From: Catajapyx aquilonaris
Taxonomy: Eukaryota
Assembly (NCBI GenBank): GCA_000934665.2
Contig: KZ537992.1
Span: 62,001-126,000 of the forward strand
Length of the DNA: 64,000 nt
Direction of reading: 5' to 3'
The notes under the pieces were generated by a model. The model was not told the DNA's origin. It saw only the letters and a program-made list of their open reading frames with translations, and did not search any database. Below are positions 26,071 to 63,986 of the stretch, one piece after another. A program made the position numbers and the translations under genes. How positions within the stretch are numbered: the first letter of the stretch is position 1; the number at the start of each line of letters is the position of its first letter.

Positions 26071-26799
26071 GATTAAGTAAAATAAAATACATATGTAAAT
26101 CGAACAAGATAAAAACCTCCATTGCAGATGAGCATGTTCGAATAACTTGCGAGTGTCCTGCCACCTGGCGACCAATTTGAGCAGCACTCGAATCTCTTCG
26201 ATTTTTTTTATGTTAAATTGACCCCTTGTGAAAAGTAAAGGGGCCTTGCAAAAATTGTCACCCGGATAAATCCGGGATCCAAGGTAATAATTTTGGTGTT
26301 AGCAGCAATGCCCTCACTTTACGATCCCTGAGCATTGGCTTCCCCCAAGATAAGGACTGGTTGGACCGAATCGCGTGGATTGCAGGTCATGTTGGGAGAT
26401 CGGATGGTAGGGGTCAGATGCTGGGGGATTGGAATGCTGGAGAGATTTTGTATGGAGTCGTACTGGCCGAATGAGGATGGGGTTTCGGTTGTGGAAGGTC
26501 AATGTGCAATTTGCATTTGCGAATTTGTGCGGACGGTGTCGCCTAAAGGCGCTAAATTTTTGCGAATTTGCGAGTTTCTTGTTGGCGAGTGCAGGTCCAT
26601 CTATCGGCGTTTGAACCAATCAGTGACAATACAGTACTGTATTTATCATCTCATGTTACTTCAAGTTTTAATGCGAATAATTGATATTACCGGAATTAGT
26701 TCATTCATATTTCATTGTTATAAACTGCATTGCTATTAATTGGTTCATTAAATAGTTTAAGTATACTTTTGATAATTATTGTGAGTGTCTATGTATAAA

Positions 26800-48779: not shown

Positions 48780-49620
48780 TATTTACGCGACGCTGAATCC
48801 GAATCCGAAAACCGTTTGTCCTTATCTCTTTGCGGTTTAGTGATATGATGCATGTTCACAGACAGACGGACAGAGCCAGACTTTTTTAAGTTAAAAATTT
48901 AAAAAATTCATTAGAAAATCAATTAATTTTTTTTTTACGTGAGTTTTCAAAAGTAGGCCTACCTATTTATACGCGACGCTGAATCCGAATCCGAAAACCG
49001 TTTGTTCTTATCTCTTGCGGTTTAGGGATATGATGCATGTTCACAGACAGACGGACAGAGCCAGACTTTTTAAAAAATAATTAGAAAATGCCTTAGAAAA
49101 TTCATTTAAAATGATTTCACGTGGGTTATTTTCAAAAGTACCTATATTTACGCGACGCTGAATCCGAATCCGAGAACAGTTTGTCCTTATCTCTTTGCGG
49201 TTTAGGGATATGATGCATGTTCACAGACAGACGGACAGAGCCAGACAACTCTGAATCCGAATCCGAAAACAGTTTGTCCTTATCTCTTTGCGGTTTAGGG
49301 ATATGATGCATGTTCACAGACAGACGGACAGAGCCAGACGACTCTGAATCCGAATCCGAAAACAGCGGTTTGATGCATGTTCACAGACAGACGGACAGAG
49401 CCAGACGACTCTGAATCCGAATCCGAAAACAATTTGTCCTTATCTCTTTGCGGTTTAGGGATATGATGCATGTTCACAGACAGACGGACAGAGCCAGACG
49501 ACCTTGAATCCGAATCCGAAAACAGTTTGTCCTTATCTCTTTGCGGTTTGATGCATGTTCACAGACTGACGGACAGAGCCATACTATTTTTTTTTTTTTT
49601 TAATGGCTTAGAAAATTAAT
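48780..49620. repeat. ~90-bp tandem repeat (~7 units), probably internal to a Helitron/Helentron-like element
   Basis: Unit gaatccgaatccgaaaacagtttgtccttatctctttgcggtttagggatatgatgcatgttcacagacagacggacagagcca; (CAGA)n(CGGA) microsatellite typical of DINE-1/HINE-like elements. Confidence 0.8.
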
Positions 49621-50746: not shown

Positions 50747-53717
50747 TATGTAATATCAGGTTACATTTCGCATTAAATTCAATGTTGCGGAGGAAGTTTG
50801 TGTTGAACCACACATTTTACATGTAATTTTGGGACTCTAAAGGTGCGTTTACATGTGAGTGAGTAACCAATGTTGTTTGCGGTGAAAGTCAGCTGGGTTA
50901 CTCAGCGATGTTACCACTCGGTGAAGACTTCGATCGTCAAATCGCTCGCATGTAAGCGCACCGTGCAGTTAAATCTTCTGGAATGGATCAGGTTACATTT
51001 CGCTGTTGTGCTGGAACTTGGGGTTCAACTGAAGCGTTGGAACATTTTACGTTCAATTTGGAACCATAATTCGTTGTGAAATCTGCTGGAATGGATCAGA
51101 CTACATTTAACTGTTGCGGAGGAACTTGTGGTTGACCCTAATTGTTGGGTGGAACATTTCGAATTAAATTATTTGGTGTAAAATCATTGGCTTCGGCTTT
51201 ACTGTTGCAGAGGAACTTGGGATTGAACCGAAGCATTTACTGTCTTGTAGCACTGGCTGTTTACCAAGAGAAAAATACCAAGGGCACTTACGGCAAAGTG
51301 GGGGAATGGGGTGGGCTAGGATATTGATTGCATACACTATTCAGATAATTGCCTCTACTGGCCTGCGTAAACTGAGGCCAAGTACAATGTTTATGCCGTT
51401 TCGCTAGTAGTGGAGGTATTTTTCATTCAGTGCTTTAAGACATGTTCAAGGTTGTCAGAAATCATCGTAGGTGCATTTTGCAATAAATTGTAGAGACAAT
51501 TTAGTCATTCATAGAGGAATTACAGTGCCTAAATTAATATCTTGTGTAGTCCATGTAATGTGGGCTGCAGGACCTGAAGGTTGGGTGAGCCCGTATCCTC
51601 TTTCAAGTCCATGTAATGTTGGAATTAGGTGCAACAATGTAGAAGGGAGACAAGAGGCCTAAAGTTTGAAGCATGAGGTCATGGCACAAGGGAAATCCCC
51701 TCTGTAGTTTGATCTGATAAAAGTCACTTGTGATAGTGACGTAAAACCTGAGTCGACAATGCGCTATTGGTGGGACCGTATTCTGGGGGTACGGAGTTGT
51801 AAATATTTACTTAGCATTACAGTTTTGATATGCTTGCAAGATAAATTTTCATTGGCTACAGTACACAGTATATGTTGGCAGAAATATACAGCATTTTGTT
51901 GCAGGATTGAACTTTCAGATGTAAAGAGTTTGAGCACTATGCTGGGGATGAGATGTAAAGGAAAATCTTGTCATTGTAACATGTCCATTTGATTGATGCA
52001 GTCGGCTCTGTGTGAGAATTATCTTAAGGTTATTTAGTGCGTACTCACCAAAACGCAAGCAATTTTAAGAAGTATATTGACATTGTTGCTCACCTCATAA
52101 AAACGCATCACATTTTTATAAAAATAGTAGGCAAGGAATATGATTGCCTTTACATAACAAATAAGGGAACGCACAAATATTTAAAGAGCAAGCAATAGTG
52201 CTACTGTATGTCAAAATGTTATAATAATACTAATCAATATGACGGAAAGCAAAAATGCTTGAGCGTACAAGATTGTCAGAGGTTTTACAATGAATTGATG
52301 ATGGGAATGATTGATCTGTGTGATGAAAGGTTTACAGTCACGGCTTTTGACCAAGCTGACCACCTCTGGGTTCCAAGGTTCAACATGAGGATAAACCAAA
52401 TCATTTTCCTTGGGTAATGAGTTAGATAAGGCCTCTGCTGCCTTGTAAGTTTGTCGATTTCCTTCCCTTTAAGATTTTGTGTTACGAAGATGGGGGTTGT
52501 AAGGGGGGAAAATAAGTATCAAAAGTGCCCATTCATTATAATTAATTAAAAATTGAAATTCATCCTATAACTGGTGCTAGTCCTAATGGACCTTTTCACG
52601 TACACCTGTAATCAAATTTAAATTGTTTAATGCTCGCTGGTTCCAGTTTATCGCATGACTATTTCTACCAAGTCATTTTCAAGTCGAAATAGGTCTCCCG
52701 AAATTTTTTGCCAGCTGTTTCATTTGATTTTTTTTTAACTGGTGAATCATAGGTGTGTTCACAGTTATATGTAGAACATGATGAATAGTACTGTTGGGAT
52801 TACTGTCTGGTAATTTTAAAGAGTGAAACAGATTGCGTTTTGCATAAGATGTGATTGCTGCATGTCCGATTGGAAAATGGGACTTGCTTCGTGGTGGGCG
52901 TGCCTCTCAGATTGTCTTGTAAACATGGAGAATGGTTGACTCGAACGCAATTATCAATGCAGAATTGGCAGTGTGCAATTCAGAGCGATTTATTCTCGCT
53001 GCCAAATCGATCTGACTGGCAGACAGAAATGTTCGAGCTTCCGTGAAGTGTAATTGACATAGTTAAAAAAATTAATGACAGAATGAGTTCGTTTTACTTA
53101 AGGTCCGTAGCCAACTAGAAACATCCAGCCTTGCTTGGGTGTTGTTGAGGTGTGGGAATTTCTTGAAACTTGATTTGAAAACGTGCATGAGGAAGTTGAG
53201 TGGAAATACCTGATAACAATTTGTGCATCACCTGCTATCTGTTTACAGATGTGCTTATCTTTTTTTTCCCCACTAGTCCGTGAAAGTTCAGCTCCCAGTT
53301 GAGAAGCCCCAAAAACTGCCGGACTCTCGAGGTAAGAGTTTGACCTTCACTTTGGTTGATGGCCCTCCCTTACTAGCTTACCTTCCTAAATACAAAAAAA
53401 AAAAAGGACCACTACCACCTACACACAAAAAATGGTTCTGCATCATTCAGTGTCATGGCCTTGGGCGTAGTAGTGGGAGCTTGTCTCACTTAGGGAAATG
53501 TTAATGTGTACATCGGTTGCATACGAGAACACTTGGCCTGATGATTTCATCTTCTGTTGTGCCGATCTGATCGGTGTTTTAATAATTTTTCAACCACGTT
53601 TTTTGTTGTTTTTTTTCCAGAGCCGGTGGTCCAGTAGTCGTGCCCCTCCAGGCCAGACAGTAAAGCTGTCTAGGATTATTTTCACGAGGGTAAGCCAGAG
53701 CGAAACATCTTGGGGAA

Positions 53718-56700
53718 ATGGTCATGGAAGAAACACCGAGCCCACACTTGGTCGGCATTGAATTTGTGCGGCAGTACTACACGATGCTCAACCATGCCCC
53801 GCTGCACCTGCATCGGTAAGGCTCCTTTTACGAGTGTTTTCAAAGGCAGTGTAGCACTAAATAAAAAGCACGGCCAACCATCGCATGTTATGTTCGCAGT
53901 ATGTTTAATTTTGTATCATTGAGCTGCCGATTTATGTAGTACCCATAACTTAACCTTGTTCCTGCCTCTCCTCAACAGATTCTACAATGACAACTCGTCA
54001 TTTGTGCATGGCGGCATGGACACGGTTAACCGTGAGGCTAAGCCAGTGTATGGCCAGCATGATATCCACCAGAAGATCATGCAGCTGAACTTCCGTGACT
54101 GCCATGCTAAGATCCTGCAGGTGGACTCGCACGCGACCCTTGGGGATGGCGTTGTGATTCAGGTCAGCGGCGAGCTGTCCAACAACGGGCAGCCGATGAG
54201 GAGGTTCATGCAGACCTTCGTTCTCGCTCTGCAGTCGCCCAAGAAGTACTACGTCCACAACGACATCTTTCGCTACCAGGTATGAGCATTTGAAGCTCAT
54301 TAACAGTTGTTGAAATGAAATTTTTTTAAAGGATCCTGAGTGCCTTCTGTAACTTTTTGAAACCTAAAAATATTGTCAGGTGGCCCGATTTTTCCAATCA
54401 GGCAGTAAGCACTGCATGACCATTTTTTAAATGAAACAGTTCGGAACAACATGGATATTAAAAATTATTATTGAACGGCATGACAAAACTGGTCCTGTTT
54501 GTGTCGTTAACCAGTTTCATGCAGGTAATTCGTGAATTTTGTCCATACCAACCAAGAGGAATGATACGAATGAAACGTGTAATGTACGGAAAATGAGAGA
54601 ACGATCTGAAGGTTTCCGTGGAAATACCCTCACAGATCAATACGAGTAAACAGTGTCAACAAAAAGCAACGAGGGAAGAAACTATGACATCAGATCGTTC
54701 TCTTGTTTTCCGTACATTATTAATGCAGCTGTCTGAATCAAGACGGACAGGTACGCATTGTTCATGGCAAGGCCTTCCACAGCCAAGTGTGAAACAGCAG
54801 GGTTGAGACCTTGCGTGGTGCTCTAGTGAGCTGATAGGTCTACGACCTGAGGCCTCTCGGGGAAAACATAAATGCATAAAACTGTTATGCTTGATTACTC
54901 TGAAAGGCTTCGTACACACTACTTGCCATAAAATATGGCAATGCAAGGGATTACAAATACATAATGAATTATTAATGCTTGTGTTACATGCCGCCGAAAT
55001 TAGCTCACTGTTGTACAGAACAAAATGTCGTGATTGTGTGTAAATCATATAAATCCTGCTACGGTACTAGTGGGAAGGGTATTGCCTTCGATTCTCCTGC
55101 CTTTCTGCTACGTGACAGGTATTCTCATGTGCAAAATAGCTTGACCTTGACATAGTTCGCAAACTATGTCAATGTAGATGTGGGCTAACTTCGATCTATA
55201 TTATGCATGGCAAAATCATTAAGTACATTTATCGTATTTGATTGCATACAAGTGCACTGTCTTCCCTGAAAAATGACTCAAATAATCGCATCGTAATACG
55301 AATGTGCATTATTATTATTATTTTTTTTTTTCCTGAATATGATCTGCTGAAATGGATATGCCGGCAAATGTGGTACTTTCGAGCCCAATCAAGTTGAACA
55401 TGGTCGCCCAACAATAAAGAATAAGGGGTTTTGGCAGTGCTTGTGCTTCACCGCCGCAATCTCCACTGTTTAAAACCACATATGCTTATGATATGTCTTG
55501 TCCCCAGATTATGACCCGAAGTGTGAGTTTTCCCTTCTCTTTTTCAGGACGTTATCTTTGATGATGAGGAAGATGAGGAAGGGGTAGGTGCTGATCAAGG
55601 CGGTGTTCGCTCTGAGGGAGAGGATCCTGAAGATGAGATCCCTGCCACGTCCGCACCCCCTGCAACCATGGGGGCTGCTCCTCAGACTGTGGGGGCCACA
55701 CCCGATGCTGTTCCGGCGCCAGCTCCAGCCCCTGAGCCTACTTACTATGACTCGGCAGCCCAGCAGGCTCCTGCTCCAACGATGAACGGCTCTGCCCACC
55801 CTGATGACTCCCACCATCTGGTTTCTGCCCCTGCGCCGCCTGGGACGAGCCAAGGCCAGAGGGGAGGGCAGATTGGAGCCGTGGCTGTGGTGGCCCCGAT
55901 GCCACCAACTGCCCCTGCTCCCGCTCCAGCCCCTGCCCCAACTCCCATCGTTGGGACTGTTGCACCGATGCAGCCCAGAGTGCCCCCCCAGGTGAGCTCA
56001 TGTGTGGCGTTTTGGAATGAGCCTATTAATAATGATGGCAATGCCGGAGTTACTTACAATTTTGTGCGTGATGACAGCAGGTGACGCAAGTATCGTCCAG
56101 CTCTTCGAGCTCGTCCTCAAGCTCGCTGACTTCATCCCAGGGGCAGGCCATAGCTCCAACTATGACCCAGCTGGTGCCAGGTGGTGTTGCCGCTAGTGCA
56201 GCGTGCCAGGCTCAGGATGACCAGAAGGGAGGTGACGCCGTCAGCAGCAATGCTAGGCCGCACACACCAGAGCCAATCGAGGAAGTGCAGCAGGAGCCAG
56301 GTAAAGAGGGAACCTTGGATGACTCTTTCAGAAGCTCAGTTGTTTAAAGTTGTCAGAAATTCTGGGTTGTTGGTTCCAAGGCTGATGGTCCGAGTTAAAT
56401 CTAGAGCAAGGGATTAATCTTAAGTGAGTAATATGCATAACCACTTGTTTTGGATTACTACATGATTAGTTTGCTGCGTTGCCGTAGCGCAAATTGTAAA
56501 GCTGCCTACTACTAACGCTTTTCTGTTCCAGTGTCGAACGAGCCCAAGACTTATGCTAACCTGGTCAAGACTGGAGGTGTGTTCAACAGCGGCTTTTCGG
56601 GAGGTATCTCCGCTCCCGCTTCGTCAGCAACATCAGCATCCATGGCTGGAAAGATGGCAGTCTCTCCTGTCAGTGGGACGGTATGTGTCAGCAGTGGGAA

Positions 56701-59266
56701 ATATTCGAGTGGTGTGGATGGCGAAATTGCATATCAAATTAATTTGGTCCCGCTTTTGTAAAGTATGGGTAAAAATACGTATGTGGCATGAACTGTTTGC
56801 CAGCCAGTCGACATGTAGGTGGAACAGTGGGAGGAGCAGCACAAGCAAATTCGTAGGGTGTGATGACACTGGTAGAATATTTTTTCCACTGCATTCTTCA
56901 TCCAGGAATTTGTGATGAAGCATTATTGAGATTAGATCTAGCAACTTGGCAGTTCCTAGAGGCAAACAGGATGTGGCTTGTTGGATGCTAGCCGTGCTTG
57001 CTTGCTTAATAAAATATGGTTGTGTTGCAGAACTCTGAATCTGGCATGCACACGCTCGGCCAGACCATGTCCCGCATGGAGCTGAAGGACGTGCCTGTTG
57101 GCGGAAACACTGGAAGCAGCCCTGGCGCAGGTGGCATGGGAGGCGGCGGAAGTGTGGGCGGCAGCAGCACTGGAGGAGGTGGCGGCAGCGTTGGAGGGAG
57201 CGGAAGCGGGGGTGGATTTGGGATGGGAATGCAGGGCCCCCGCATGCCCAGAACCAGGGGTGGTCCTGGGGGAGGTGGCCCCATGAGGGGAGGCCTCAGG
57301 AGTGACAGGGGCCCCGGAAGGGGGAACCCGGATGACGGAGGGGACAACTGGATGAGCCTCGGTGATTCTCGTCCCCAGAATAATTACGGTAAGGGTGTTT
57401 GGGATATGGGCGTCACACTTGACTGATGCATTAGTGATGCTAAGCTCCCTCTGAACCCTCCGAGGCAATGCTTTATAAATGGCACCTTGGTTTCCTATGT
57501 GGGAGAGAGTAAAATCGGTGGGAATAGTCCGACTAGAAGAGGCGTCAGCTTGCTCAAATCGCTCATGCCTTGTCGGCTAATCCTTCCACATGTCATTCTT
57601 GTCTTAACGTAACATTGATATAAGAACAAACGCAGCTTACTTAATGGGCTTCTTCAGTTGTCCTGCTGTTTTAAAGCAGAGGTTAAATTGAAAAGGCAAG
57701 GCTTCAGAATTTCTGAAATAGGAAGTGCTGAAGTTATTATCAGTACAAGATGTGAGTGGATAAAGCGGGTTGGTGATCCTGCTCTCATTCTTTCCTGGCA
57801 GGGAGCTCCAGCGGTGGTGATGGTGACAGGCGTCGCAGCGTGAACAGCGGCCACTTGTATGCCGACAGCCAGCAGCTCTTTGTGGGGAACCTCCCGCACC
57901 ATGTGGGACAGGACGATCTCAAGGTGAGACCCAGGAATGACGAAAGAGTTTGTGCCAACATTTGTGTCACAAGGTTCAAAAGGGGACAACATTATTTTAA
58001 ACTTGGGAGATAGTAAGTTACCATGTACTTCTCTGATCACAGGAATTGTTTGGGAGGTTCGGCACTGTCCTGGAGGTTCGGATCAGCAGCAAGGCGGGAA
58101 TGAAGACGGTTTCTGGCGGCAGGGTCCCCAACTACAGCTTTGTTGTCTTTGACGACGAGACGACAGTTCAGGCTGTGCTTAACAACAAGGTAGGTCGTCA
58201 CTAGAAATATATTACGTAAGCTAAGGACACCTGCCTAATCGAGTTTCTACATTCTGCGGGAAAAAAATTACTGAACGCCTTTGGTTTTTTTGTACATCAG
58301 TAGGGGACAAGTTTCCACTGCAGGCGATTAGATGTAGGGTGAAGTGTGCTAGGCTCCCTCTGAACCCTCCGAGGCAATGCTTTATAAATGGCACCTTGGT
58401 TTCCTATGTGGGAGAGAGTAAAATCGGTGGGAATAGTCCGACTAGAAGAGGCGTCAGCTTGCTCAAATCGCTCATGCCTTGTCGGCTAATCCTTCCACAT
58501 GTCATTCTTGTCTTAACGTAACATTGATATAAGAACAAACGCAGCTTCCTCAATGGGCTTCTTCAGTTGTCTTATTACGCTGCTGTTTTAAAGCAGAGGT
58601 TAAATTGAAAAGGCAAGGCTTCAGAATTTCTGAAATGGGAAGTGCTGAAGTTATCATCTTATAGCCATGGTTGTTTTGACTTCTTCCTAATAAACCATAA
58701 CTCGGTTACATACAAAATATGTAAGATGTAATGGATTTTTCATTTGTGTCCCCTAAAGCCTCATTTACATGTGAGCAATTCGCTCAGCGAAGAGTAGCAC
58801 TGACAAGTGAGTGATGAATCCAATTGTTTGGGGTGGACGTATCAATTGATTTTCGACCCCCCCAAACAATTGGATTCGTCGCTCACATGTAAATGCAGCC
58901 TTAATGGCTTGAATGGCTAGTTGTGACAGCAATGTTTTCATTTTGCAGCCCTTCTACCTGAAGAGTCTCCAAGGCCAGGACCACAAGCTGAACGTGGAGG
59001 AGAAAAAGACACGGATGCGCAACGAGGGAGGAGGTGGGGGAGGGATGCGGATGGGCGGGGGTGATCCCAATCGCCCGCCGATGGGACGTGTCGGAGGAGG
59101 GATGGGAAGGGGAGGTGGGATGGGCGGAGGTGGAATGAGGGGCGGGAGGGGAGGCGGAATGGGAGGAGGTTACGCAGGTAGGGGCGGAGGAGGAGGAGGA
59201 AGCGGAGATGGGCGTGGGGGCATGCGAGGCGGCGGTGGCGGCTTCAACAACCGCCAGTCTCGCTAG
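53718..59266 (+). CDS. G3BP: G3BP/Rasputin stress-granule nucleator (NTF2-like, acidic, Pro-rich, RRM, RGG)
   Basis: [78 protein letters not shown] tail. Exons approx 53718-53815, 53980-54279, 55548-55991, 56081-56300, 56532-56668/56680, 57031-57388, 57802-57923, 58043-58189, 58949-59266. Probable 5' UTR exons near 49900-50058 and 53277-53331; AATAAA at ~61792. Confidence 0.95.
57445..57593 (+). ncRNA. Candidate box H/ACA snoRNA, copy A (G3BP intron)
   Basis: Hairpin 1 CTCCC..GGGAG with upper stem CCGAGG/CCTTGG and an open pocket; H box AGAGTA (57506-57511); hairpin 2 CCGAC/GTCGG; ACA followed by 3 nt at 57588; sense to the host gene. Confidence 0.7.
58354..58502 (+). ncRNA. Candidate box H/ACA snoRNA, copy B (a later G3BP intron)
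   Basis: Identical by eye to 57445-57593. Confidence 0.7.
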
Positions 59267-60313
59267 GAAGCGCATTAGTGCATTTTTTTTTTTTCTCCCC
59301 CATGCCTGCCACACCTTTTTTGAAGGAAGGGCGCCTTTTTATGATGGGGGGGTTCGCTTTGAACGCTCTGGAGAGCACCACTGGTGATCACACACCCAGC
59401 TGCGTAACATATCGGCAGAGTGCAAGGAGTAACTGCATACATGCTTTTACTTGAATATAGTACGGTTATTTCTTGGGCTGCGCTTGATAGGTTAATCATC
59501 GGCTGTGGAAGTGGTCGAAATAAGGAGGCTCTCAAAGCGTTCAAATGACGGCACTTATGCACTTCAATGGAAGGTGTCCTTTCCCACCCATCTCTACCGT
59601 TCTTTTTTTTTTTTTTGTAATTGTATTTTTTGTTCTCTGGCCTGTGCATTTTTTTAATTTTTTTTTGTAGTTCATGGGCCATTTTCCCCCATCCACCTCT
59701 CCTCCAAAAGCGAAAGCTGGACTTTTTACAAGTTGATCACATAGGACTGAGGTGCAGCCATATTTATGTTGCAACTTGAATCATAACAAGTGAAAATGAG
59801 GTTTCTGTTGATTTTTATAAAAAAAAAAAACAACGTGCAGAGGGGGAAGCTGGGGGGGGGATCGTCGTTTCGCAATAGAAAATTGCTTGCGGCTGGTACC
59901 ATTCAATAGAAATTGACATTGACCAAGGACTGCTCAGTTGTGTGGTGATTTTCTTTTTTGGTTCCTCTCTCGACTCTCTCTACATGTACGCTGGGGGGGG
60001 GAAAAGCCAACCCGGAACTCTTTCATGTACGGAAAAAAGGATAGTGCAAACCCGAACACAAACTCACTATGTACGACGAAAGGGGAAATTATTAAGGTGC
60101 TGTGTGATTTATTTTGTGTGTGTGTTGTTGATGTGTTTTTTTTGTTGTTTTTTTTTGAGGGGAGGGGTGGGTGGGGAAAAAGGGGCTTGAGGGTAACTAC
60201 AAAATGATGCCAAAATTTTTCTGTTTCCTGGATTTTGTGTTTTAATATATTTTTTTTTCCCTCGATGCTGTGAAAAACACTCACTATTATGCAATTTATG
60301 TGTTGTCTATACT

Positions 60314-60370
60314 NNNNNNNNNNNNNNNNNNNNNNNNNNNNNNNNNNNNNNNNNNNNNNNNNNNNNNNNN
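60314..60370. other. Assembly gap (N run) next to a (TC)n repeat
   Basis: Run of Ns. Confidence 0.99.
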
Positions 60371-63385: not shown

Positions 63386-63986
63386 TTAGCGCGTAGCTCA
63401 TGGTCAGAAAAGGATATCGTTTCGTTTTTACTGCGCTTTTTGGGATAGGATAGGAAATGAATTCGGCGGCTGTGGCCTATTATTTAAGGAAACAACTCCG
63501 GAATTCTCCTGGAGGAACCGTGGGAAACAACAGAAAGCCAGAGTTGCCGGCACCGGGATTCGAACCCAGGACCTCCCGATTAGCAGTCGGATACCATATC
63601 CCCTCGCGGCCACCACTGCTTCGGTGTTGCCATGTTAATAACGGTAGTGTTGTCATTGTAGCCCGTTGCCATGCAAACTTTGTTGTTGCCGTATTAATAA
63701 CTTTCTCGCCTTGGCAACCAAACCGAGCTATCACGGCAACAAGTTAACATGGCAACGGATTGCAGTGCTAACTTGCGCTGTTGCCAACAGGTTAGCTCAC
63801 TGCAATCCGTTGCCGTGTTAAGGTGTTGCTTTGGTGGCCCGCCATTGGGACCATGGGAAGATGTTGCCATGATAAGCGGTGTTAACTTGTTGTTGCCATG
63901 TCCAGTCCGTTGCCATGGTGACAAAACGTCCTAACCTGGACAAACAAACTAGCGAATCTCTTCGTCTTTTATAATATAACAAGAGA
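63386..63986 (-). mobile_element. Helitron-like element related to 12986-13953
   Basis: Minus-strand 5' A|TCTCTTG..ATAAAAGACGAAG..TTTGTTTGTCC; gttgccatg repeats; 3' ATGAGCTACGCGCTAA resembles ATGAGCTACACTGCTAG. Confidence 0.55.
63430..63619 (-). mobile_element. tRNA-derived SINE inserted in the Helitron-like element
   Basis: Minus-strand A-box-like gtggccgcgaggg; B box GGTTCGAATCCC (63555-63566); non-tRNA body. Confidence 0.75.

Follow-up and report, generated by a model that had tools for sequence, protein, structure and literature searches.

Animal intron-encoded box H/ACA snoRNAs share a common layout, and the pair of predicted RNAs described here resembles them in the succession of hairpin, ANANNA, hairpin and an ACA placed three bases before the fold ends, over some 150 nt, in a two-sided pocket placed 15 nt from a box, and in bipartite rRNA complementarity around an unpaired U-N. 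They also lie, like such snoRNAs, in sense within introns of a protein-coding host, where the paralogues occupy separate introns of a single gene. According to the excerpted text of a study of vertebrates (Deryusheva et al. 2019, PMC6984369), the order, intron position and copy number of snoRNAs vary between taxa, and an antisense element can pass from one guide RNA to another that is not homologous to it. Among the described RNAs close to our locus is vertebrate SNORA61 (RF00420), for which the excerpted supplement of Jorjani et al. 2016 gives a 28S-2495 guide in the 5' hairpin, a 3' hairpin without reported target and a range of tetrapods and teleosts only ('Tetrapodes and Teleostes').

The window analyzed here, that is, the whole stretch of 64,000 nt from Catajapyx aquilonaris (GCA_000934665.2, contig KZ537992.1, positions 62,001 to 126,000, forward strand), contains a gene of the G3BP/Rasputin type, and it seems likely that each of two of its introns encodes one canonical box H/ACA snoRNA of about 150 nt, the 5' hairpin of which would guide pseudouridylation of a uridine in 28S rRNA. 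What is new is a genuine-looking, unannotated box H/ACA snoRNA of the ordinary kind, predicted in two intronic paralogues and without a match in Rfam. The host gene, the introns and the duplicated block are as follows:

53694..59266, + strand: host gene of G3BP/Rasputin type (the part within the window), from stop-to-stop open reading frames, Pfam and closest relatives
57389..57801, + strand: intron with copy 1, GT at 57389 and AG at 57800-57801, junctions and phase checked
57438..57741, + strand: duplicated block, copy 1, from repeat search and local alignment
57594..57741, + strand: co-duplicated 3' flank of copy 1, holding four of the five substitutions and the 8-nt indel
58190..58948, + strand: intron with copy 2, GT at 58190 and AG at 58947-58948
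58347..58658, + strand: duplicated block, copy 2, from repeat search and local alignment

The exons of the host follow the order NTF2 exons, an acidic and proline-rich exon, a glycine-rich exon, two RRM exons and an RGG tail. Pfam finds NTF2 in it at 95 bits and RRM_1 at 20.7 bits, the latter score being equal to its cut-off, and its closest named relatives are arthropod G3BP/Rasputin proteins, with at most 84% identity on the NTF2 exon; judged by these matches, the host is a protostome-type G3BP. The exon upstream of the first intron ends in phase 1 and its last codon is completed by the exon at 57802-57923. Within these two spliceosomal introns, which have GT/AG ends and keep a consistent reading phase, each copy has the orientation of the host, a gene of expressed type. 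An earlier reading of this DNA, made from the letters alone (hereafter the sequence-only reading), had placed the candidate in two introns of a G3BP gene, and the domain matches, the acidic and RGG-rich exons, the relatives and the splice junctions all bear this out. Among the matches listed from open-access full text, none was found to describe G3BP as host of a snoRNA; of two matches there for Psi28S guides together with rasputin, the one listed concerns other hosts.

A block of about 304 bp is present twice, on the + strand in both cases, with 299 of 312 aligned columns identical in the local alignment of the two copies. The differences consist of five substitutions (57443 A/G, 57639 A/C, 57642 T/C, 57720 A/G and 57738 T/C, copy 1 first) and an 8-nt insertion in copy 2 after 57662, leaving the 195 nt from 57444 to 57638 without a single difference. 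The recurrence of a block of roughly 300 bp in two introns, the identity of its first 150 nt or so and the substitutions and indel downstream had all been noted by eye in the sequence-only reading, and the alignment agrees on each point. With none of the five substitutions inside the predicted 150-nt RNA the hypergeometric P is 0.032 (0.016 if the indel is counted as a sixth event), but the identity extends 45 nt beyond the ACA box, to 57638, so that the core may owe its lack of changes to gene conversion or a recent duplication no less than to selection. For the 3' flank itself, folding gives z = -2.48 (+ strand) and z = +0.20 (- strand), and there is no Rfam match of note.

Two occurrences within 1 kb might also be expected of a dispersed repeat, either a transposable element or a family of snoRNA-derived retrocopies, and snoRNA retrocopies do occur in other animals. 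In all four DNA runs examined (X1-X4), the contig of the shared block has about twice the word depth of its flanks (68.9 versus 34.1/36.5, 38.6 versus 21.3/18.6, 66.2 versus 30.9/30.8 and 47.8 versus 25.4/26), although these runs represent one sample from one study, possibly the sample behind the assembly, and contig depth is not a copy number. This is unlike the repeat at 58755-58900, 100-250 bp downstream of the block, which is truly dispersed and where numerous contigs end loosely. With up to three mismatches allowed, a 21-nt probe taken from the 5' hairpin finds two sites in the 64-kb window, which are the two copies (0 expected from 100 shuffles), and neither a poly(A) tail nor a target-site duplication is visible by eye at the block ends. 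Dispersal had been named beforehand as an outcome that would count against a snoRNA, and with a depth of about twofold rather than tens-fold we regard it as very improbable.

The same reads bear on the possibility that the second copy is an artefact of assembly around a single real copy, as near-identical repeats 909 bp apart can result from misassembly. A 2147-nt contig enters copy 1 from the left flank and reaches 57473, a 693-nt contig bridges 57690-58382 and with it the end of copy 1, both RRM exons and the start of copy 2, and further contigs leave copy 2 from 58607. The variant paths of both copies are seen, X1 and X2 keeping that of copy 1 and X3 and X4 that of copy 2. The read graph is independent of the assembler, though the reads may be the assembly's own. 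The check on misassembly proposed by the sequence-only reading is therefore also negative, and an artefact is hardly credible; double depth and bridging from copy 1 to copy 2 together indicate that the block is neither a dispersed repeat nor a product of assembly, and that its copy number is two.

Within each block, the predicted RNA and its elements are the following (the elements are given for copy 1):

57444..57593, + strand: predicted box H/ACA snoRNA, copy 1 (150 nt), from fold and descriptor match
57445..57505, + strand: 5' hairpin, -20.3 kcal/mol by RNAfold of the isolated hairpin
57450..57459, + strand: 5' strand of the pocket, UCUGAACCCU, from the fold
57491..57500, + strand: 3' strand of the pocket, UUUCCUAUGU, from the fold
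57506..57511, + strand: H box AGAGUA, which fits ANANNA, directly after the 5' hairpin
57517..57587, + strand: 3' hairpin, -28.9 kcal/mol
57588..57590, + strand: ACA box, abutting the base of the 3' hairpin and followed by UGU at 57591-57593
58353..58502, + strand: predicted box H/ACA snoRNA, copy 2, identical to copy 1, with H box at 58415-58420 and ACA at 58497-58499

Both the minimum free energy (MFE) structure and the centroid of the + strand give the order hairpin, AGAGUA, hairpin, ACA and UGU. The MFE on this strand is -53.3 kcal/mol (z = -2.95, with one of 200 shuffles as good), whereas the - strand of the same region folds with z = +0.22, so that the hairpin-H box-hairpin-ACA fold claimed from the letters holds on the + strand only. 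The 5' hairpin comprises a lower stem (57445-57449/57501-57505), two upper helices (57460-57465/57485-57490 and 57469-57472/57481-57484) and an apical loop at 57473-57480. Its pocket opens so that the 3' strand, starting at 57491, lies 15 nt before the H box at 57506, inside the canonical 14-16 nt and exactly as had been read by eye. In the 3' hairpin, by contrast with the 5' hairpin, the would-be pocket is closed in the MFE structure, which has only a 5-nt bulge (57534-57538) in place of an open two-sided pocket; the upper stem ends 16 nt before the ACA, and no supportable target was found for this hairpin. The apical loops UUAUAAAU (57473-57480) and UUGCUCAAAUC (57550-57560) contain no CAB box UGAG, the consensus that characterizes the H/ACA scaRNAs that act in the Cajal body as guides for snRNAs. 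As the two copies are identical throughout the RNA, comparing them is uninformative on pairing, and 57444-57593 aligns to 58353-58502 with 0 differences.

The specificity of this architecture was gauged with a generic H/ACA descriptor, which asks for ANANNA, ACA, two single hairpins that each reach -18 kcal/mol or lower, and a two-sided pocket at a distance of 13-17 nt from a box, with thresholds that were set after the candidate had been seen. On both strands of the window the descriptor matches exactly twice, at the two copies, and none of 14 shuffled versions of the whole window, made with dinucleotides preserved, gives a match.

Evidence on the target comes from a human 28S reverse ChIP primer, ATCTGAACCCGACTCCCTTT, printed in the excerpted Table 2 of PMC10461479, from which the human 28S sequence AAAGGGAG-U-C-GGGUUCAGAU can be derived (as DNA, AAAGGGAG-T-C-GGGTTCAGAT). 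When the pocket is set against the complement of this primer, U-C remains unpaired exactly between both arms. Nucleotides 57450-57458 form nine of nine Watson-Crick pairs with GGGUUCAGA of 28S (duplex energy -14.1 kcal/mol), and 57491-57496 pair with AGGGAG, for which the energy model gives five pairs, with a G-U in addition at the terminus, the 3'-arm duplex being weak (-4.1 kcal/mol, with one to two G-U pairs). The estimated chance that a random pocket would match such a site in about 7.2 kb of rRNA is 2.7e-5, the complementarity itself being to one 20-nt human 28S sequence. The predicted substrate is probably the U of the conserved 28S motif AGGGAG-U-C-GGGUUCAGA, in LSU domain III. The sequence-only reading had proposed a 28S target of similar form; its shape is real in the human primer, but the AGGGAA that it gave for the 3' arm implies one G-U pair, the strict Watson-Crick complement of UUUCCU being AGGAAA. 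Between 28S-2236 and 28S-2619, the excerpted supplement of Jorjani et al. 2016 lists a single pseudouridine, 28S-2495, and by that list the predicted U may be unmodified in human.

In metagenome sequences, the 17-nt motif derived from the pocket strands occurs at no fewer than 115 loci, the flanks of which look unrelated; the four most rRNA-like loci (L103, L061, L037 and L009) have no Rfam match, and for the remaining 111 the flanks alone were considered. A motif lengthened by five bases is found at a single locus in genome contigs, which is not rRNA (L116), and at none in viral contigs. In the open-access literature, the sense orientation returns only unrelated siRNA, miRNA and primer strings, and the antisense orientation returns, among six matches, the 28S primer and an E2F7 primer. 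The name Psi28S-1837, which we take to be that of a fly snoRNA possibly directed to the targeted 28S region, is absent from open-access full text.

These observations can be weighed against the possibility of a neutral, recent intronic duplication that resembles an H/ACA snoRNA by chance, or of a decayed and unexpressed pair of snoRNA pseudogenes. Such an origin would be compatible with two copies that differ by only five substitutions and one indel over some 304 bp, with an identity that continues past the predicted RNA and with the want of a family match. The boxes and stems are, however, intact in both copies, the descriptor is met nowhere else in the real window and in none of the 14 shuffles, and the chance expectation is about 3e-5 for a bipartite 28S complementarity of 14-15 bp that leaves a U unpaired at the canonical distance. 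A neutral or pseudogene pair thus appears quite unlikely. In its more general claim of a duplicated H/ACA-type guide, the sequence-only reading finds support in the architecture, the box spacing, the strand specificity and the rRNA complementarity.

The relationship with SNORA61 is less straightforward. The predicted RNA is directed to the same short conserved 28S stretch, and it recalls the SNORA61 layout in having a pocket in the 5' hairpin and no evident guide in the 3' hairpin. By eye, and against the printed SNORA61 sequence, the two RNAs also have in common the string UCUGAAC, an ARAGUA H box, a pyrimidine-rich/purine-rich lower stem and, in the 3' strand of the upper stem, CUUGG. Nonetheless, the membership in SNORA61 suggested by the sequence-only reading is not supported, as three Rfam scans return neither RF00420 nor any other H/ACA family at gathering score, nor at E<=10 on 421 nt or 158 nt. 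The missing Infernal match, the taxon range and the host all speak against membership in the SNORA61 family.

Orthology with SNORA61, in which case the RNA would guide the equivalent of human 28S pseudouridine 2495, is a separate matter. The shared 28S segment, the hairpin layout and the short strings common by eye would speak for it; the three scans without a family match at E<=10 and a reported range of tetrapods and teleosts, as opposed to a protostome-type G3BP host, speak against it. The host of SNORA61 is moreover the non-coding SNHG12 and not G3BP, although a host is not strictly defining, given that hosts change in evolution (PMC6984369, excerpted text). In the printed SNORA61 sequence, the canonical pocket has by eye a 3' strand that starts 14 nt before the H box and a 5' strand that carries UCCCUUUC. 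UCCCUUUC is complementary to GAAAGGGA, and the nucleotide that it would bracket, in this register read by eye, lies about 12 nt to the 5' side of the U in the Catajapyx pocket; UCUGAAC of SNORA61 lies near the apical loop, outside the pocket. We consider orthology unlikely on these grounds, and the two RNAs probably address the same 28S segment at a different uridine. The shuffling of antisense elements described in the excerpted vertebrate work (PMC6984369) fits an unrelated scaffold, in a different host, that addresses the same rRNA neighborhood. No paper was found in open-access full text that mentions SNORA61 together with the 8-nt antisense string. In contrast to catalogued box H/ACA snoRNAs, the Catajapyx RNA is a predicted one, matches no curated family and has its pocket in the 5' hairpin only.

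For the favored reading of a canonical intronic guide, a mechanism can be proposed from established knowledge of intronic H/ACA snoRNAs. If the host introns are expressed and processed, dyskerin/Cbf5, Nop10 and Nhp2, and later Gar1, would assemble on the G3BP pre-mRNA while it is being transcribed. Once the intron has been spliced out and debranched, exonucleases would trim it to the protein-protected hairpin-H-hairpin-ACA core. In the nucleolus, the internal loop of the 5' hairpin would pair with large-subunit rRNA on either side of one uridine, provided that the site exists in C. aquilonaris, and dyskerin would isomerize the bracketed uridine to pseudouridine, the 3' hairpin serving mainly as the ACA-proximal half of the particle. 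The two copies would have arisen by duplication of an intronic segment of about 300 bp within the G3BP gene.

The locus would thereby add an unannotated predicted pseudouridylation guide to a lineage with poorly catalogued snoRNAs, and it points to one particular uridine, within a conserved region of large-subunit rRNA, the predicted modification of which can be tested. It also offers a clean example of a snoRNA paralogue pair that may have arisen through a small duplication inside one host gene, and suggests that in a distant animal a scaffold apparently unrelated to vertebrate SNORA61 addresses the same 28S stretch as SNORA61 does, in another register. The understanding of H/ACA guides is left unchanged. 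A bolder and rather improbable combination would join a lineage-specific pseudouridine, at a 28S U apparently unmodified in human, to shared ancestry with SNORA61, the apical region of which still carries a 10-nt complement to the same 28S stretch, and to a G3BP-coupled dose. Were it true, no more than about 12 nt would separate the predicted U from the 2495 site of vertebrates, and the guide, while changing hosts, would have 'slid' along a single rRNA segment between protostomes and vertebrates. The location of both copies in introns of G3BP, a nucleator of stress granules, would then tie the dose of modification to G3BP transcription.

A block of about 304 bp occurs as a direct repeat in two introns of a G3BP-type gene, and each occurrence opens with a predicted 150-nt box H/ACA snoRNA (57444-57593 in copy 1, 58353-58502 in copy 2). 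Most probably the two are paralogues encoding a working box H/ACA snoRNA that lacks annotation; it would be released from the G3BP introns, and its 5' pocket would guide the pseudouridylation of a single uridine in a conserved LSU motif. The stop-to-stop frames of the + strand between about 53.7 and 59.3 kb begin with an NTF2-like N-terminal part, pass through one acidic exon rich in proline, one rich in glycine and a pair that jointly read as an RRM, and close with an RGG tail. Pfam reports NTF2 at 95 bits and, from a single exon holding part of the domain, RRM_1 at 20.7 bits, exactly the cut-off. When searched against longer proteins, the NTF2 exon retrieved 1442 proteins at E<=1e-10; among the best 120 of these, most of the named proteins are G3BP or Rasputin, identity is 84% in cockroach and termite, 78-80% in spiders and centipede and about 65% in fish, and the species' own protein is absent. 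These relatives and identities make the host gene a protostome G3BP orthologue, with an arthropod as its most likely source. Together with the frames and the NTF2 domain, the following introns and exons, all with consistent splice sites and phase, bear out the location in two G3BP introns proposed by the sequence-only reading, and both copies are sense to the host gene.

57389-57801, + strand, intron with copy 1
57438-57741, + strand, copy 1 of the directly repeated block
57802-57923, + strand, exon
57924-58042, + strand, intron of 119 nt without a copy
58043-58189, + strand, exon
58190-58948, + strand, intron with copy 2
58347-58658, + strand, copy 2 of the directly repeated block

A search of open-access full texts turned up no publication that names G3BP or Rasputin as host of a snoRNA, which is not surprising because host turnover is described as common among snoRNAs (PMC6984369).

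Repeat search and alignment agree with the initial description of a block of some 300 bp with an identical first half and a flank carrying substitutions and an indel. The copies are identical in 299 of 312 columns, differing by five substitutions (57443 A/G, six bases into the block, and 57639, 57642, 57720 and 57738 in its 3' part) and by 8 extra nucleotides that copy 2 has after 57662, with no difference across 57444-57638. A 21-nt block probe, with up to three mismatches allowed, matched the window twice against none expected and revealed no further copies. The four DNA runs containing the block, compared over 57200-58900, come from one sample of one study and may be the reads behind the assembly. 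In them, a 2147-nt contig enters copy 1 from the left and ends at 57473, a 693-nt contig starting at 57690 spans the two RRM exons and reaches 58382, within copy 2, and contigs exit copy 2 from 58607. The shared core forms a contig of its own, as the copy-1 variant (276 nt) in two runs and as the copy-2 variant with the 8-nt insertion (284 nt) in two. Word depth of the core against its flanks is 68.9 versus 34.1/36.5, 38.6 versus 21.3/18.6, 66.2 versus 30.9/30.8 and 47.8 versus 25.4/26, that is, about twofold in all four runs, contig depth not being a copy number. This graph of flank, core, bridge, core and flank with a twofold core is the expectation for two copies, unlike that for one copy or a dispersed family. 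Hence, it is very improbable that the duplication is an assembly artefact of a single copy, given the bridging contig and the doubled depth, and equally so that the block is a dispersed repeat, which the merely twofold depth and the restriction to two places in the window contradict. By contrast, the stretch 58755-58900, in the same intron as copy 2, appears in the DNA runs in several unrelated contigs at raised depth, with many loose contig ends, as in a genuine dispersed repeat. The two 43-nt arms of an inverted repeat in this stretch (58797-58839 and 58854-58896) are 84% complementary, and a variant in which 58790-58883 is swapped for 31 other letters occurs in four of four runs; these features resemble a small dispersed element of MITE type that has a variant form, either allelic or paralogous.

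The fold of the candidate on the + strand reproduces the layout first seen by eye, with two hairpins, an H box between them and ACA-UGU after the second:

57445-57449 / 57501-57505, + strand, lower stem of the 5' hairpin in the predicted fold
57450-57459 (UCUGAACCCU) and 57491-57500 (UUUCCUAUGU), + strand, predicted internal loop (pocket) of the 5' hairpin
57460-57465 / 57485-57490, then 57469-57472 / 57481-57484, + strand, predicted upper stem of the 5' hairpin
57506-57511, + strand, H box AGAGUA, between the hairpins
57517-57587, + strand, 3' hairpin, the stabler of the two (-28.9 kcal/mol)
57588-57590, + strand, ACA box after the 3' hairpin, with UGU next

The test stretch of 164 nt folds at -53.3 kcal/mol (z = -2.95; 1 of 200 shuffles equally good), and its minus strand folds no better than shuffles (z = +0.22). 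The 3' strand of the pocket begins 15 nt before the H box (57491 versus 57506), as had been claimed, within the canonical window of 14-16 nt. The upper stem of the 3' hairpin ends 16 nt before ACA, and a two-sided loop is absent from the minimum-energy fold of this hairpin. Neither apical loop contains UGAG, the motif of Cajal-body guides. A generic H/ACA descriptor was also applied, demanding two single hairpins of -18 kcal/mol or lower whose stems abut the boxes, ANANNA in the hinge and ACA behind the second hairpin; one or both hairpins had to carry a two-sided loop with no fewer than five bases on each side, 13-17 nt away from the respective box. Its only matches on both strands of the window are copies 1 and 2, and 14 dinucleotide-preserving shuffles of the window gave none; its thresholds were chosen with the candidate already seen, making this a control and not a blind test. 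The 150-nt RNA itself is free of all five substitutions (P = 0.032; 0.016 if the indel is counted as one more event), a pattern that is only suggestive of selection on the RNA because the identical run continues 45 nt past ACA. The co-duplicated 3' flank (57594-57741) also folds, on its + strand, somewhat more stably than shuffles do (z = -2.48, equalled by 3 of 200), with a 34-nt hairpin near 57701-57734; its minus strand folds no better than shuffles. Since the indel and four of the substitutions lie in it and no Rfam family matches it, it is regarded as passenger sequence.

The two strands of an H/ACA pocket flank the target uridine on the substrate, the 3' strand pairing on its 5' side and the 5' strand on its 3' side; for the pocket strands seen here, the site expected under this rule is AGG(A/G)A(A/G)-U-N-GGGUUCAGA. 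Full-text search with the antisense string of this site located ATCTGAACCCGACTCCCTTT, the reverse primer of a ChIP pair for human rDNA that Table 2 of PMC10461479 labels as 28S. Its complement, AAAGGGAG-T-C-GGGTTCAGAT, fits the predicted form and provides a counterpart to the AGGGAA-U-N type of target envisaged initially. Against this complement, 57450-57458 forms nine Watson-Crick pairs with GGGUUCAGA (-14.1 kcal/mol) and 57491-57496 forms five energy-model pairs plus a terminal G-U with AGGGAG (-4.1 kcal/mol), leaving U and C unpaired at the pocket top. The expectation for a random pocket finding such a site in ~7.2 kb of rRNA is roughly 3e-5. Because the predicted motif occurs in a 28S gene at so low a chance, this comparison with a human 28S sequence strongly supports the candidate as a genuine rRNA guide, and suggests that the conserved target stretch may be unchanged, or almost so, in Catajapyx aquilonaris 28S. 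The same figure, along with the absence of descriptor matches in shuffles, makes a chance or dead look-alike unlikely. Scans of sequence collections with the target motif yielded no rRNA; they returned at least 115 loci with unrelated flanks in a metagenome collection (four checked against Rfam, no match), one bacterial MAG locus without an Rfam match among genome contigs, and none among viral contigs.

The likeness to SNORA61 drawn by the sequence-only reading holds for the 28S segment addressed and fails for family membership: Rfam release 15 gave no H/ACA family match over the whole window at gathering score, nor at E<=10 in pieces of 421 and 158 nt around the candidate. In print, SNORA61 is the guide of human 28S pseudouridine 2495, encoded in SNHG12; one published account names 2495 among 'human-specific' sites, and PMC6984369 enters it across vertebrates. 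In the main supplement table of Jorjani et al. 2016 (PMC4914119), the 5' hairpin of SNORA61 has 28S-2495 as its reported and 18S-918 as its best predicted target, the 3' hairpin has none reported, conservation is given as 'Tetrapodes and Teleostes' and the host as SNHG12. Both RNAs thus have their reported or predicted guide pocket in the 5' hairpin and none in the 3' hairpin, a layout in favor of strict orthology, which the Rfam scans render improbable, and less likely than an unannotated snoRNA. In human SNORA61 as printed in that supplement and read by eye, the lower stem spans 2-7 / 56-61, the upper stem plausibly about 19-25 / 41-47, and, with the H box at 62, the 3' strand of the pocket begins 14 nt upstream of that box. 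The 5' strand holds UCCCUUUC, complement of GAAAGGGA, and the pocket would bracket a nucleotide 2-3 bases 5' of the AAAGGGA opening the primer-derived stretch. On this reading by eye, the nucleotide would lie ~12 nt 5' of the candidate's U, and the two RNAs would address one 28S segment in different registers. The same printed sequence also contains GGAUCUGAAC, a 10-nt perfect complement of the 28S stretch GUUCAGAUCC, near the apical loop and outside the pocket; GUUCAGAUCC lies a few bases 3' of the SNORA61 target region, and GGAUCUGAAC could serve for additional pairing or be left over from a different register. As 2495 is the sole pseudouridine between 28S-2236 and 28S-2619 in the corresponding passage of the PMC4914119 modification table, the predicted U may be unmodified in human.

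Elsewhere in the window, shortly after the G3BP gene, a run of N at about 60310-60370 (X in translated frames) marks a gap in the assembly. A tRNA-like element at 63545-63619 (-) narrowly passes the Rfam tRNA threshold (33.1 bits versus 29); ARAGORN called no tRNA gene in the window, this element included, which may represent a decayed tRNA or else a repeat of tRNA origin. Tandem repeats at about 48800-49600 present the same translated unit of ~30 residues several times. Finally, 26244-26360 (-) carries a full-length gene for the minor-spliceosomal U4atac snRNA (RF00618, 66.1 bits versus a gathering score of 53, E = 5.9e-09), and the organism therefore has a minor spliceosome.
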